A stretch of DNA of 5,803 nt from a virus (lineage: Duplodnaviria > Heunggongvirae > Uroviricota > Caudoviricetes): IMG/VR virus record IMGVR_UViG_2537562152_000014. The stretch is one strand, 5' to 3'. The notes beneath the pieces were generated by a model that saw only the letters and a program-made list of their open reading frames with translations, did no database searches and was not told the DNA's origin. The stretch's first letter is position 1; each line of letters starts with the position of its first letter. Shown here one piece after another: positions 1 through 4,796 of this stretch. The position numbers were made by a program, and so were the translations under genes.

Positions 1-287
1 CTGTGACTGCGCATACGGGCCACCAGCAGAGGCGGCATTGCCTTTTCGATCGCCGGTAACAGAGCCTGCATTTTTTCAACTGCATCAGGGGTGTCTTTCT
101 CTATCCAGCGGAAAATTTTCTGGGTATTGCGAGCCAGGGCTTCCGGATGGCTGTCGTCGTACAGTTCAGGAAACGTCATACCCAACTCAAAATAAGCCTG
201 GGTTATTCCAGCTGCCGGAACTTTTTCGCCATCAGGACGCGCCCAGGCATTCATCGCCATGCGGATGTGTTCATGCTTGATTTTCAT
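1..287 (-). CDS. YdaT-like / CII-position prophage early regulatory protein (partial; C-terminus lies beyond the window start)
   Basis: Minus-strand frame is open from ATG at 287-285 to position 1 (95 codons, no stop); it is absent from the ORF track because no stop falls in the window. Translation begins MKIKHEHIRMAMNAWARPDGEKVPAAGITQAYFELGMTFPELYDDSHPEALARNTQKIFRWIEKDTPDAVEKMQALLPAIEKAM. A G-run SD (GGGGGG, complement of 292-297) lies 4 nt upstream. The start overlaps the last 17 nt of the cro-like gene. The MKIKHEHI N-terminus and the position directly after cro match my recollection of Rac YdaT; this is not verified by alignment. Confidence 0.55.
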   Translation of the reverse strand, partial: MKIKHEHIRMAMNAWARPDGEKVPAAGITQAYFELGMTFPELYDDSHPEALARNTQKIFRWIEKDTPDAVEKMQALLPAIEKAMPPLLVARMRSH

Positions 288-513
288 GAATCCCCCCTTG
301 GTTAGAAGGCGGATTATGATCAGAATCGGGAATGACAACCGTCGGTATGTGTAACTCATATTTGAGCGCCCCGGCAGTGACTGCCTGAATTAGCAACGCC
401 CATTTCCACGGAACGTCTTCCCCCCACATGCTGACTGTGGTTTTTGACGTTCCTAGAGCGGCGGCTGTTTTAACAACTCCGCCAAAATAGCCTAATACTT
501 CTGATTTTTTCAT
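271..513 (-). CDS. Cro-like HTH transcriptional regulator (DicC/YdaS-like)
   Basis: ORF-track ORF 271..561 trimmed to the ATG at 513-511, which has a GGAG SD 6 nt upstream; the upstream ATGs at 561 and 525 have none. The 80-aa product MKKSEVLGYFGGVVKTAAALGTSKTTVSMWGEDVPW... has an HTH-like core and the LxYFGG opening typical of DicC/YdaS-type Cro proteins. It is divergent from the CI-type gene, the classic genetic-switch layout. Confidence 0.7.
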   Translation of the reverse strand: MKKSEVLGYFGGVVKTAAALGTSKTTVSMWGEDVPWKWALLIQAVTAGALKYELHIPTVVIPDSDHNPPSNQGGIHENQA

Positions 514-604
514 GAGTCGCTCCATAAAACTGAACGCCAAAAGTTTAATAATCAAAACCAAAGAAAGTCAAGAAACAAAACCATCTGTGTTTTAAAATCA
601 AAAC
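514..604. promoter_or_regulatory. Divergent promoter/operator region between cro-like and cI-like genes (OR/PR/PRM analogue)
   Basis: 91-bp AT-rich intergenic between divergent repressor genes. CAAAAC occurs three times at 23-bp spacing (553-558, 576-581, 599-604) within longer related units (550-559, 573-582, 596-604). An inverted repeat TGTTTT-N6-AAAACA at 588-605 overlaps the cI start codon. A candidate -10 TAAAAT (593-598) sits 6 nt before the cI ATG. A candidate minus-strand promoter for cro has -35 TTGACT (complement of 566-571) and a -10-like TATTAA/TTAAAC (complement of 543-550). Confidence 0.5.
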
Positions 605-1243
605 ATGAACAAGCAAACAATATCTGAACGCATAACCCAACGTATGCATGCGCTAAACTTGAAAGGCAAAGACCTTGTCAATGCCACTGGCGCATCAAAA
701 GGCTCCGTAAGTCAATGGATGAACGGTGGAGGAGCGCCGTCCTCGCGTTACATAAGTTCACTGGCAAAGATATTGAAAGTAAACGAAAATTGGCTTCTTA
801 ATGGAGGAGAGTTAAATACAGGTGATTCGCTTGATCTATCTTTACCGCCGATAAAAACGGTTCCGCTACTATCACTTCAGCAGGCAGCAAGCTGGAGTGA
901 TTATATGAAAAATTCCTCAATAACCTCTTGTGTGCAGCTTGTCGGAGAAATCCCGGCCAATACCTTTGCTGTTGTTCTAGAGAGTGACAGTATGTCGACA
1001 TCTGGTGGTGGAGTTTCCATCCCAAATGGTTCAACAGTTTTTGTTGATCCCGATCGAATCGTACAACCAGGAAATATTGTCCTTGCCTTACCCAAAGGGA
1101 CCACAACGCCTGTCATTCGCAAACTGGAGATAGAAGGGCCGGATATTCTTTTAGTCCCCACGAATCCTCGCTACCCTTCAATTATGCTGGATGATCTATC
1201 TTGCATATTGGGAGTATGCTTTAAAATTCAACAAGATATTTAA
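605..1243 (+). CDS. CI-type prophage repressor: N-terminal HTH domain plus C-terminal LexA-like S24 autopeptidase domain
   Basis: 212-aa ORF. The N-terminal segment (ISERITQRMHALNLKGKDLVNATGASKGSVSQWMNGGGAPS) has an XRE-type HTH pattern. The C-terminal part carries the S24 catalytic signature: Ser in ESDSMS and a Lys about 40 residues later in VIRKLE. An in-frame TAA at 593-595 leaves 605 as the first possible start, and no SD precedes it. Confidence 0.85.
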   Translation: MNKQTISERITQRMHALNLKGKDLVNATGASKGSVSQWMNGGGAPSSRYISSLAKILKVNENWLLNGGELNTGDSLDLSLPPIKTVPLLSLQQAASWSDYMKNSSITSCVQLVGEIPANTFAVVLESDSMSTSGGGVSIPNGSTVFVDPDRIVQPGNIVLALPKGTTTPVIRKLEIEGPDILLVPTNPRYPSIMLDDLSCILGVCFKIQQDI

Positions 1244-1307
1244 CCAACCTCATCTATTTGATTAACTGTATGCCATCGTAGTGATGGCGTAACAGCTGCC
1301 TGCTTAA

Positions 1308-1356
1308 AATGTTTTGATAAAAAAACATTGACCTTAAATGTTCGTTTTTCTAAACT
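1308..1356 (+). promoter_or_regulatory. PL-like promoter of the early-left (ydfA-dicF-dicB) operon with an overlapping operator palindrome
   Basis: -35 TTGACC (1328-1333), 17-bp spacer, -10 TAAACT (1351-1356). A perfect 8-bp inverted repeat AATGTTTT (1308-1315) / AAAACATT (1322-1329) with a 6-bp spacer overlaps the -35, and a further AATGTT half-site lies at 1337-1342. The core TGTTTT-N6-AAAACA is the same as the palindrome at 588-605. Confidence 0.45.
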
Positions 1357-1535
1357 TCATTCATTCCCTCACCCCGCCCCACAGAATGCAGGGCAATACT
1401 TCGAGTTACCAGGCAGTGGTCAGGGGTTAAGTAGCCAGCCCGAGGCGTAAGAACATGACGGCAGGGTTCAACTTTAATAACTATGCAGCAGGTTTTTGTT
1501 CCGCTACCCCGGCGTTAAGGGGAAATGAGGTCAAC

Positions 1536-1688
1536 ATGGATACGCTCAATCTTGGCAACAACGAATCTCTGGTATGTGGCGTGTTCCCCAACCAGGACGG
1601 TACGTTCACCGCGATGACGTATACCAAAAGCAAAACGTTTAAAACTGAAGCTGGCGCGCGTCGCTGGTTAGCCAGAAACACTGACTGA
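1536..1688 (+). CDS. ydfA: DUF1391-family small prophage protein (YdfA-like)
   Basis: 50-aa product MDTLNLGNNESLVCGVFPNQDGTFTAMTYTKSKTFKTEAGARRWLARNTD from ATG 1536 with GAGG SD (1527-1530) 5 nt upstream. The ORF track extends it to 1455, but that start has only a weaker, more distant GAGG. Size and position (first gene after the repressor, in the dicB operon) match my recollection of K-12 ydfA. The stop overlaps the next gene's RBS. Confidence 0.6.
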   Translation: MDTLNLGNNESLVCGVFPNQDGTFTAMTYTKSKTFKTEAGARRWLARNTD

Positions 1689-1699
1689 TGAGGTTGACG

Positions 1700-2338
1700 A
1701 TGGAATTTAAAGATTTACCTCCTTCAATCCAGGAGATTGCAGCACACACACTTCGTCATCGTCTGAACGAACTTGAATTGGAATCGGTAACGAAAAAAGA
1801 CACTGATAATATGGCTCGTAATGTGCGCGATGCGTTTACCGGATTGTATTTCTGTGCGTCTATAAATAAACACGACTCAGAGAGTGTGGCAAATAAAATT
1901 GCAGAAACGACAGCGCAAAACATCAATACGAAACCAACGGAAGAAGAAATTGATCAGTTTGCTCATGATGCTGGTTTAAAAAACAAGAAAGAAAAATCGC
2001 CATATGCGGGGAACATGTTTGTTTATGACAATCTCATCAGAATTCGTGGCGAAATTCCGGCGGAATACCTGGCAAGAGTCCATCAGGCATTGCTTAAAAA
2101 TTTGGAAACAGAATTATTTGATGGCAACACTAACGGTTTCTTCATGGTATCAGGCCTTGAGAAAGACTGGGATGCAGAAAAACGCTGGAATGTTGCTACA
2201 TGGTTATTCAGTAACAGAGCCGCTGCACTGGAAGCTTCGGCATGTATTTGCGGCCTGTTCTTAACAGACCACAAATATAATCTGGATGTGTACAGTTATA
2301 TTTACGCTGAACACGGTCCACTCTGGATTGACTGGTAA
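1700..2338 (+). CDS. Hypothetical protein (212 aa), unrecognised cargo gene in the early-left operon
   Basis: Long ORF; start set at ATG 1700 (MEFKDLPPSIQ...) because GAGG (1690-1693) lies 6 nt upstream, whereas the ORF-track start at 1688 has no SD. No recognisable catalytic motif or TM segment. Sampled 60-nt stretches are about 37-40 percent GC, against about 50-63 percent in the right-hand part of the window. Confidence 0.65.
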   Translation: MEFKDLPPSIQEIAAHTLRHRLNELELESVTKKDTDNMARNVRDAFTGLYFCASINKHDSESVANKIAETTAQNINTKPTEEEIDQFAHDAGLKNKKEKSPYAGNMFVYDNLIRIRGEIPAEYLARVHQALLKNLETELFDGNTNGFFMVSGLEKDWDAEKRWNVATWLFSNRAAALEASACICGLFLTDHKYNLDVYSYIYAEHGPLWIDW

Positions 2339-2548
2339 TTATAAGGAAACACCAGCAGGGCCGCGGCGACCAACAGAACGATTAAAATCAATAATGCCAT
2401 TATAAAGGACATTATTTAATTTATCGTCGAATGCTGATTCTGTGAGCCTCAACTCTGAATGAGTTTTTAATAACCCTGATTGCCTGAGTTGATTTACCAG
2501 GCATTCAATCTGTTTTTCAATAAGCGGATTTCTTTTTTTGTTTGGCAT
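2339..2548 (-). CDS. Hypothetical small protein (69 aa), convergent with the 212-aa gene
   Basis: The minus-strand ORF 2339..2560 contains an internal ATG at 2548-2546 preceded by a perfect GGAGG (complement of 2554-2558) with a 5-nt spacer, so the SD-supported product is MPNKKRNPLIEKQIECLVNQLRQSGLLKTHSELRLTESAFDDK... Its stop codon (2341-2339) directly abuts the stop of the plus-strand 212-aa gene (2336-2338). No family recognised. Confidence 0.5.
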   Translation of the reverse strand: MPNKKRNPLIEKQIECLVNQLRQSGLLKTHSELRLTESAFDDKLNNVLYNGIIDFNRSVGRRGPAGVSL

Positions 2549-2885: not shown

Positions 2886-2938
2886 TTTCTGGTGACGTTT
2901 GGCGGTATCAGTTTTACTCCGTGGCTGCTCTGCCGCCC
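2886..2938 (+). ncRNA. dicF: DicF small regulatory RNA (ftsZ translation inhibitor)
   Basis: TTTCTGGTGACGTTTGGCGGTATCAGTTTTACTCCGTGGCTGCTCTGCCGCCC is near-identical to the 53-nt DicF sequence of E. coli K-12 as I recall it, with possibly one substitution. It is followed by a T-run (2939-2943) and lies immediately upstream of dicB, as in the K-12 dicB operon. Confidence 0.75.
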
Positions 2939-3112: not shown

Positions 3113-3301
3113 ATGGAAACGTTATTACCAAACGTTAATACGTCTGAAGGTTGTTTTGATATTGGTGTTCTGCTCAGTAACCGGGAGTTTACTGAAGATG
3201 CCATTAACATGAGGAAATATGAGCCTTATCTGCTCAATGATAATTCCATACTTTCCCGAATTGCTCTTCTTGAACTTGGTATTTTCGGAGAACGTCAATG
3301 A
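3113..3301 (+). CDS. dicB: DicB-like cell division inhibitor (MinC-dependent FtsZ-ring inhibitor)
   Basis: ORF-track ORF 3008..3301 trimmed to ATG 3113, which has GAGGA (3101-3105) 7 nt upstream. The 62-aa product METLLPNVNTSEGCFDIGVLLSNREFTEDAIN... matches the N-terminal half of K-12 DicB (MKTLLPNVNTSEGCFEIGV...) as I recall it, with a more divergent C-terminal half. It sits directly downstream of DicF. Confidence 0.85.
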   Translation: METLLPNVNTSEGCFDIGVLLSNREFTEDAINMRKYEPYLLNDNSILSRIALLELGIFGERQ

Positions 3302-3578: not shown

Positions 3579-4796
3579 ATGAGCACTGATAAAGAAGAAT
3601 TTGCGCTATATTGCGAAGCAAAAAATGACAAAGTCAGAAAACGTCTGGGAATTAAAGGTGGTTTTTACTGGACTACAGCAAAAAAATTATCTGTTGCCAT
3701 CTCCCGCTGCATTACCGCAATGGATGACAACGATTATGATGAAGACGACTTTAAAAAACCCGTTCGCGTCCATTTACCCGTTGTGAATGACCTTCCACCT
3801 GAAGGCGTGTTTGATACCGAATTCTGCAACCGATACGAAAAAGGCGGGGAAGATGGCATTACAATGGTATTTATCGCGCCCTCTCCCTCCGTGCAGGAGA
3901 AACCAGCCAGTACTGACAATACCAACGTCAACGGCGAAGACATGACGGAGATTGAGGAGAATATGCTCCTGCCGGTTTCTGGTCAGGAGCTGCCCATTCG
4001 CTGGCTTGCGCAACACGGCAGCGAAAAACCAGTAACGCACGTTGCACGGGAAGAACTTCAGGCATTACATATAGCACGGGCGGAAGAACTGCCGGCTGTT
4101 ACTGCCCTGGCCATTTCTCACAAAACAAAGCTGCTCGACCCGCTGGAGATTCGCGACCTTCACAAACTGGTACGCGACACTGACAAAGTTTTCCCTAATC
4201 CCGGTAATTCAGACCTGGGACTGATAACTGCTTTTTTCGAGGCATACCTGGACGCTGACTACACTGATCGGGGTCTGCTGACAAAAGAGTGGATGAAAGG
4301 AAATCGTGTTTCGCGTATCACCCGTACGGCTTCCGGTGCAAATGCCGGTGGCGGGAACAAAACCGATCGCAATCCGAATTTAGTACACACCTTCGATACG
4401 CTGGATGTGGAGATTGCAGCAGCCACACTTCCGATGGATTTTAATATTTATGAAATTCCGGGCAGCGTTTATCGTCGCGCAAAAGAAATCGTCCTGAAAA
4501 GAGAAAGTCCGTTCAAAGAATGGTCCGCAGCACTTCGCGCAACCCCGGGTATTCTGGACTATTCCCGCGCCGCTATTTTTGCACTTATCCGGAGCGCTCA
4601 CCCTGAGTTTTATCACTACCCGGGACGCCTTCAGGGGTATATCAACGCCTACTTAACGGAGACTGATCACGAGAACCCCAGCAAGGAAACTCTCACTGCT
4701 GCACGACATACACCGGAAAAAGATTCTGCAAAAACTTTTGTTCAGGAGACGCTGAAAGATACCTGGGAGTCTGCTGACGAGTGGTTTGTTCGCTAA
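3579..4796 (+). CDS. Hypothetical prophage early-left protein (405 aa), possibly an intact homologue of the gene after ydfD in Qin-type prophages
   Basis: Long ORF with GAGG (3568-3571) 7 nt upstream of the ATG. It contains an acidic patch ([10 protein letters not shown]) and a Gly-rich segment ([15 protein letters not shown]), with no TM segment. Sampled stretches are about 50 percent GC. Function not recognisable. Confidence 0.7.

Follow-up and report, generated by a model that had tools for sequence, protein, structure and literature searches.

Gene content of the window

The stretch of DNA analysed here (referred to as the window; 5,803 nucleotides, IMG/VR record IMGVR_UViG_2537562152_000014) is 100% identical over positions 1-2400 to the chromosomes of the E. 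coli O157:H7 strains EDL933 and TR01. Judged by its gene content (Table 1), the window is a cryptic (defective) lambdoid prophage of the Qin/dicBF type from E. coli O157:H7. The cro-like gene and the cI-type repressor gene are divergently oriented and separated by 91 bp, which is the gene arrangement of lambdoid immunity regions. The genes from ydfA through dicF to dicB form an operon under the promoter at 1328-1356, and this is also the operon that is controlled in Qin-type prophages.

Table 1. Genes, candidate operators, promoters and mapped transcription starts of the window (genome positions and conditions of the starts are from the gene-associated starts in Supplementary Table S5 of PMC10469882)
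Feature	Position	Strand	Sequence or remarks
YdaT-family gene	1-287	minus	
Cro-like protein, P22_Cro family, 80 aa	271-513	minus	Pfam PF14549, E = 1e-15
Start, cro-like gene	535	minus	genome 1896690 (+); 2/8 conditions, both salt
OR1 (candidate)	540-561		AAAGTTTAATAATCAAAACCAA; spans cro promoter -10; leave-one-out rank 1
PR-like promoter, cro-like gene	542-571	minus	-35 TTGACT 571-566, 18-bp spacer, -10 TAAACT 547-542
OR2 (candidate, weak, less certain)	563-584		GAAAGTCAAGAAACAAAACCAT; overlaps cro promoter -35; leave-one-out rank 7
OR3 (candidate)	586-607		TGTGTTTTAAAATCAAAACATG; holds -10 TAAAAT 593-598 and ATG; leave-one-out rank 1
Repressor maintenance promoter	593-605	plus	-10 TAAAAT 593-598, start 605
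Start, repressor	605	plus	genome 1896620 (-); 8/8 conditions
cI-type repressor, 212 aa	605-1243	plus	N-terminal helix-turn-helix, C-terminal S24 peptidase domain
OL1 (candidate)	1308-1329		AATGTTTTGATAAAAAAACATT; perfect 8+8 palindrome, top matrix score, leave-one-out rank 1
PL-like promoter (dicBp equivalent)	1328-1356	plus	-35 TTGACC 1328-1333, 17-bp spacer, -10 TAAACT 1351-1356 (consensus scan)
OL2 (candidate)	1337-1358		AATGTTCGTTTTTCTAAACTTC; spans spacer and -10; leave-one-out rank 1
Start, ydfA-dicF-dicB operon	1363 (an A)	plus	genome 1895862 (-); 6/8 conditions, absent in stationary LB and stationary acid
ydfA / DUF1391	1536-1688		operon downstream of the 1328-1356 promoter
DicF RNA	2887-2938		Rfam, 75 bits
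dicB (DicB)	3113-3301		
Further content: DUF1482 gene, RecE remnant, insertion-sequence remnants			

At least 326 of the 5426 complete E. coli genomes carry this immunity type, where places covering 80% or more of window positions 1-2400 were counted, and it also occurs in more than 100 IMG/VR prophage contigs. No experimental work on it was found in the literature. A study of DicA and DicC in O157:H7 (PMC6915034) was considered as work on this locus and set aside, as its primers do not match the window and belong to a different prophage copy. At about 4711-4724 the window lacks 965 bp that are present in EDL933 (CP120944; L001 10725-11688). This deletion joins the N-terminal remnant of RecE to a DinI-like C-terminus in a single 405-aa open reading frame (3579-4796), and it shows that the window derives from a related O157:H7 strain instead of this EDL933 assembly.

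The repressor and the Cro-like protein

The repressor carries the Pfam domain PF00717 (Peptidase_S24), and its match to PF01381 (HTH_3) reached 21.5 bits, just below the 23-bit cut-off. Its best match among solved structures was lambda cI (3bdn, E = 4.9e-10), whereas the N-terminal domain matched the DNA-binding domains of the 434 and P22 c2 repressors with E values of about 1e-4. The serine in ESDSM and the lysine in IRKL align with S149 and K192 of lambda cI, and the Ala-Ala of the motif QQAASW (residues ~93-97) aligns with the lambda cleavage site Ala111-Gly112. This motif is unchanged in relatives that are 83-89% identical in protein sequence. Since Ala-Ala occupies this position, SOS inducibility of the repressor is uncertain, a situation reminiscent of DicA, which is non-cleavable.

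In a large protein database no repressor relatives below about 83% identity were found save truncated forms, and a scan of species-representative genomes for distant relatives yielded merely irrelevant S24 fragments from Mycobacterium and Alicyclobacillus. Among the repressors of phage records identity drops from 98% straight to about 30%. The RefSeq model of the gene (905-1243, WP_001416688.1, 'LexA family protein') comprises the C-terminal 112 aa alone in both EDL933 assemblies. This model appears to be truncated, since both the reading frame and a mapped transcription start begin at 605 and the helix-turn-helix lies in the omitted part. The gene model is corrected here so as to include the DNA-binding half.

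A family of 22-bp candidate operators

In the initial annotation a perfect inverted repeat was described at 1308-1329, and its core, TGTTTT-N6-AAAACA, was reported to recur at 588-605 over the start codon of the cI-like gene. Both readings were correct when the sequence was re-examined. The first repeat has the structure AATGTTTT-GATAAA-AAAACATT, and its final two bases overlap the -35 hexamer of the downstream promoter; the second reads TGTTTT-AAAATC-AAAACA, and its last base is the A of the ATG at 605. Both copies are real, but the count of two was too low, as the family consists of four strong and one weak candidate operators in 22-bp frames, including OL2 and the weak site OR2. Likewise, the related element noted at 551-558 was placed properly but is more than a half-site, being the right half of the full site OR1 (ATCAAAAC occurs at 551-558 and 597-604, ATCAAAACA at 597-605).

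The sites suggest a 22-bp consensus of roughly AATGTTTTGAT..ATCAAAACATT with the core TGTT-N10-AACA. There are two flavours of half-site, ATGTTTTGAT and AAGTTTA, because the promoter-proximal half (TAAACTT, the reverse complement of AAGTTTA) is at the same time a -10 element. OR1, OR2 and OR3 follow one another at a spacing of 23 bp; the right half of OR2 is good, and its left half is shifted by 1 bp. Thus several related, imperfect palindromes overlap both divergent promoters, and the family recurs, as OL1 and OL2, at a second early promoter beyond the repressor gene. Both features are characteristic of lambdoid switches. No third OL site was recognised in the 35 bp that flank OL1 and OL2 on each side. 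A possible LexA box at 585-600 was rejected, as its left half is CTGT but its right half is ATCA and not ACAG.

For leave-one-out tests a symmetric matrix was built from the other four sites, and about 5700 positions of the window were ranked with it. The frames starting at 540, 586, 1308 and 1337 each came first and the one at 563 came seventh. A repeat search revealed that 1337-1355 is 79% complementary to 1311-1329 and that 542-560 is a copy of 588-606, and the pattern GTTT-N8-AAAC (at most one mismatch) was found four times in the window, each time at a site of the family. The hexamer CAAAAC occurs at 553, 576 and 599 with an exact period of 23 bp, which was reached in 77 of 20000 shuffles. 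When the whole window was shuffled with dinucleotides preserved, the exact 12-base core appeared in 5 of 3000 sequences, and in none of them more than once; given the palindrome at 1308-1329, the same core and spacing were obtained in 20 of 100000 local shuffles of the 97-bp cro-cI region (OR). An 8-bp perfect inverted repeat arose in 67 of 2000 shuffles of 1244-1454. A loose test allowing up to two mismatches was weak: the window had 2 matches and the shuffled sequences 0.57 on average, and at least two were present in 24 of 200 shuffles. The exact tests confirmed that the recurrence of the palindrome is well beyond chance.

Promoters and transcription starts

Transcription starts were taken from Cappable-seq data for EDL933 (gene-associated starts in Supplementary Table S5 of PMC10469882; NZ_CP008957.1), which score each start as present or absent in each of eight conditions. 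Genome positions were converted to window positions by subtracting them from 1897225, and the 3425 nt compared contained 0 mismatches. All three starts of Table 1 lie exactly 7 nt past a -10-like hexamer. The starts at 535 and 605 had been predicted from the hexamers beforehand; 1363 had been derived likewise but had not been written down.

The initial annotation had recognised TTGACC, a 17-bp spacer and TAAACT as a promoter, and the same hexamers were returned by the consensus scan. This promoter is real, as a start was mapped at 1363, 7 nt past TAAACT (PMC10469882, gene-associated starts), and the mapped start of the ydfA operon is therefore compatible with it. Its hexamers are conserved. 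The palindrome at the beginning of cI had been assigned to the promoter of the repressor itself, and this too was borne out by the start at 605 and by the -10 TAAAAT, which lies inside the palindrome. From the position of this site we infer that the repressor is autoregulated. The mRNA of the repressor is therefore leaderless, its first base being the A of the start codon, and no Shine-Dalgarno sequence was found upstream of the repressor ATG.

Detection of the repressor start in all eight conditions and of the cro start in two is as expected for a repressed prophage. The 1363 start was seen in six of the eight even though the repressor is always transcribed, which means either that repression is incomplete or that basal or subpopulation firing was detected. 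The hexamer that is best placed to act as -35 for the repressor (AAGAAA, 570-575) overlaps the cro -35 (571-566, minus strand) back to back. Taking into account these overlapping -35 elements and starts that are 70 bp apart, RNA polymerase could probably occupy just one promoter at a time.

Minor starts inside the repressor gene were listed among the gene-associated starts at 622 (two of eight conditions), 666 (four of eight) and 703 (one of eight). The one at 666 comes after CTAAACTT (653-660), a copy of the half-site that contains the -10. K-12 DicF has been described as a processing product. In EDL933 genome position 1894339 was listed as a start for stationary M9 only; it corresponds to window 2886 and precedes the 5' end of DicF by 1 nt. 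It reflects either an abundant processed end that was carried over or a promoter of its own.

The ydfA transcript begins with a 173-nt leader (1363-1535), which is 92-98% identical among prophages of different immunity types and mostly absent from K-12 Qin. A search for structured RNA in this leader gave no significant fold (z = +1.17), and Rfam applied to the window returned DicF alone. Translation from an in-frame ATG at 1455, which has GAGG in front of it, would yield a YdfA form of 77 aa. The segment 1266-1295, which lies 23 nt past the stop codon of cI, folds into a strong hairpin (-15.9 kcal/mol, z = -4.2), and does so on the minus strand too. Its arms GCCATC/GATGGC are invariant among relatives and its loop is variable, and there is no U-tract. 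It could be a stabiliser of the 3' end or a protein site.

Conservation of the sites

Positions 543-607 were invariant across 54 haplotypes. In the same haplotypes the sole change in the arms of OL1 was T to C at 1328, the rest of the changes being in the central spacer; in each of two distant relatives one further arm base is changed, at 1308 or 1315. OL2 belongs to the more variable intergenic stretches and differs among relatives, but its GTT...AAAC core never does. OR2 is invariant except for its last two bases (583-584), and OR3 has a single change, A600G, in a relative whose repressor protein is 84% identical. In three contigs with repressors 83-84% identical (cro/cI DNA ~80-83%) all sites are kept, and the changes are mostly between the sites, at outer positions, or swaps of half-site flavour.

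The five 22-bp frames had been fixed before variation was examined. Within these pre-recorded frames 21 of 107 positions vary, compared with 70 of 195 other intergenic positions (Fisher p = 0.004). Because promoter elements overlap the sites at 540-607, their conservation was taken as supporting evidence only.

Exchange of operators and repressor as one module

The link between operators and repressor was examined by module-swap comparisons, and the palindromes of other modules were sought by pattern searches. Homology to prophages with other repressors breaks at ~292 and at ~1360-1370: an O111:H8 prophage is homologous over 1-292 and 1360-2400, and a prophage of a dog isolate over 1-292 and 1370-1679. 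These breaks place both operator sets and the promoter inside the exchangeable module (~293-1368), the right edge of which falls within a few bases of the start at 1363. Operators and repressor are exchanged as one module, as in lambdoid phages. All 80 IMG/VR loci with this cI keep window positions 1-1523 or more unbroken, and in all 79 evaluable loci that contain OL1 this cI is directly upstream.

Other modules carry palindromes of their own in the same two places (TACCCATGGGTA; GTAAC-N4-GTTAC; AAAAACTGT..ACAGTTTTT). In one module three copies of TACCCNNGGGTA lie between cro and the repressor gene and two precede the ydfA leader; the scan yielded 8 matches in total, where chance would give 0.62 on average. 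At the corresponding places of its own module GTAAC-N4-GTTAC is present in two copies and in one. A second EDL933 prophage with a different repressor has AAAAACTGT..ACAGTTTTT palindromes at both promoters; among the gene-associated Cappable-seq starts, that of its repressor is the first base of the start codon and that of its ydfA is 175 nt before the ATG.

Geometry of the sites and the proposed switch

Taken together, it is very probable that the palindromes serve as operators in the immunity switch of this E. coli O157:H7 prophage, a cryptic lambdoid element of the Qin/dicBF type. The OR/OL logic of lambda, which the initial annotation had invoked, is supported by the placement of the sites in the module, by the palindromes of the other immunity types and by the layout of K-12 Qin (PMC10448788, PMC3441716). 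The centres of OL1 and OL2 are at -44.5 and -15.5 relative to the start at 1363, and those of OR1 and OR2 at -15.5 and -38.5 relative to the cro start. OR1 and OL2 are thus identically placed at the two lytic-type promoters. Relative to the repressor start, OR3 is centred at -8.5 and OR2 at -31.5.

In the proposed switch a dimer of the repressor would recognise the 22-bp sites, and the divergently encoded P22-Cro-type protein probably shares them. As the proximal half-site of OR1 and OL2 doubles as the -10, bound repressor would bar RNA polymerase: occupied OR1 would block the cro promoter, and occupied OL2 that of ydfA-dicF-dicB. OL1 and the weak OR2 may assist by cooperative binding. OR3 covers the -10 and the leaderless start, and synthesis of the repressor would cease once either Cro or surplus repressor had bound there. 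We infer which protein would act at which site, and likewise the order of affinities, the cooperativity and the direction of autoregulation. The overlap of OL1 with the -35 is just 2 bp, so OL1 alone may not occlude polymerase. The best palindromes (OL1 and OR3) are not over a lytic -10, and the order of affinities is therefore not readable from the sequence. The position of OR2 at -31.5 argues against a lambda-style activation of the repressor's own promoter.

A different wiring could be read from the same geometry, in which the repressor is mainly negatively autoregulated and not SOS-inducible, and dicF/dicB expression is tuned to be leaky in O157:H7, unlike in lambda and K-12 Qin. It is suggested by the most symmetric sites, OR3 (-8.5) and OL1 (-44.5), which spare the lytic -10 elements, by OR2 at -31.5, by the Ala-Ala of the repressor and by the activity of the ydfA-dicF-dicB promoter in six of eight conditions. 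We consider such a wiring unlikely.

The proposed operators offer a testable consensus and a promoter map for an uncharacterised immunity type. DicF copies have been linked to virulence regulation in EHEC, according to literature cited by PMC10448788. The module lies upstream of the O157:H7 copy of dicF/dicB, and knowledge of the gating sites would allow clean derepression and silencing experiments.

Alternative explanations

The sites might reflect A/T-rich promoter architecture instead of repressor binding, OL1 being an UP element and the others lookalikes of -10 and spacer sequences. OL1 does resemble an A/T-rich UP element, the consensus of which we take to be NNAAAWWTWTTTTNNNAAANNN; it spans -55 to -34 and by our own reading fits most of that consensus. 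Moreover, OR1 and OL2 share TAAACT since each contains a -10, and the loose pattern counts over the whole window were not above chance. However, chance is very unlikely to have placed the exact 12-base core, identically spaced, at two promoters, even when judged by local shuffles, and the promoter-distal halves of OR1 and OL2, too, match the consensus. The sequence of the sites is swapped along with the gene for the repressor. The leader transcribed from the promoter, in contrast, is common to the immunity types, and other modules have unrelated, G/C-containing palindromes at the same positions. These observations make an explanation by promoter architecture very unlikely, and in the case of OL1 the UP-element and the operator readings can both hold. 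Another possibility is that the repressor is not the protein that binds the sites. They might be bound solely by the Cro-like protein, or by a nucleoid or regulatory protein of the host with a preference for A/T-rich palindromes. The sites are A/T-rich, Cro-type proteins usually share their operators with cI, and H-NS/Cnu counteracts DicA at the K-12 operator (PMC3441716). A host factor, however, would leave it unexplained why the sites travel with, and are replaced with, the repressor and cro. The operator frame is common with that of the DicA operator, and the DNA-binding domain of DicA is homologous to that of the repressor. The Cro-like protein is unlike DicC. Binding by some other protein in place of the repressor is thus regarded as highly improbable.

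The palindrome at 1308-1329 could also be viewed as an RNA hairpin that terminates the repressor transcript or stabilises its 3' end, as it is located 65 nt past the cI stop codon and its fold, at -5.7 kcal/mol, has a z of -4.4. Its stem, however, consists entirely of A-U and G-U pairs and is followed by no U-tract, and the far stronger hairpin at 1266-1295 lies upstream of it. The sister palindrome at 588-605 folds no better than shuffled sequences (z = -0.96), and a hairpin cannot form there in the repressor mRNA because this mRNA starts at 605. With a weak fold, no U-tract and a sister palindrome outside the repressor transcript, the terminator reading was rejected, and a function as RNA hairpin seems extremely improbable.

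Comparison with known systems

The closest parallel is found in K-12 Qin, which has the same order of cro-like gene, repressor gene, promoter and ydfA...dicF-dicB. Lambda-like operators between dicA and dicC and at dicBp are attributed to Bejar et al. 1988 in PMC10448788. DicA represses dicBp, with 22-fold derepression on deletion, and together with DicC constitutes a bistable switch (PMC10448788). In vivo DicA binds Oc, a 20-bp inverted repeat, TTGTTAGTCATAACTAACAA (Yun et al. 2012, PMC3441716). The K-12 promoter dicBp (TTGACC-17-TAATCT) and its counterpart here (TTGACC-17-TAAACT) are alike in the -35 and in the spacer, and in K-12 (where the sites are of ATGTTAG type) as here there is an operator upstream of the -35 and another over the spacer and -10. 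A K-12 operator overlaps the dicA ATG in the same manner as OR3 overlaps that of the repressor, and Oc fits the TGTT-N10-AACA frame of OR3 and OL1.

In other respects the two systems differ. The DNA-binding domain of DicA is 37% identical to that of the repressor, the 65-aa helix-turn-helix region alone aligning, and DicA has 135 aa and lacks the S24 peptidase domain of the 212-aa repressor. The inner operator bases are ATGTTTTGAT here and (A/T)TGTTAGT(C) in K-12, hence the sites are not of the Oc type. In a BLASTP comparison the Cro-like protein displayed no similarity to DicC. In view of the S24 domain, the inner operator bases and a Cro-like protein unrelated to DicC, the repressor is not an orthologue of DicA. 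The spacing of the downstream operators is 29 bp, compared with 35 bp in K-12. The 173-nt ydfA leader is longer than that of K-12, which measures roughly 70 nt if its start is taken from the -10. The perfect palindrome of K-12 adjoins dicC, whereas the better palindrome here is on the repressor start.

With lambda the switch shares divergent cI and cro genes around three operators at intervals of ~23 bp, a leftward early promoter past cI that has related operators, a leaderless cI mRNA, and a repressor composed of helix-turn-helix and S24 domains. The lambda PR and PRM starts are 82 bp apart; those of the PR-like and PRM-like promoters here are separated by 70 bp. Further differences from lambda are two recognisable OL sites in place of three, 22-bp sites of other sequence, a middle site at -31.5 that is too close for activation of the kind exerted from -42, and Ala-Ala for Ala-Gly at the aligned cleavage site. 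The 434 and P22 c2 repressors are about 28-30% identical over the whole protein, and the spacing and core of their operators are different. The 434 operators have the form ACAA-N6-TTGT, and as in these the outer bases of the present sites are conserved and the centre is variable. Conceptually, nothing is added to the classical lambdoid switch; what is described here is a new immunity (DNA) specificity within a classical lambdoid, Qin-type architecture and not a new kind of system.
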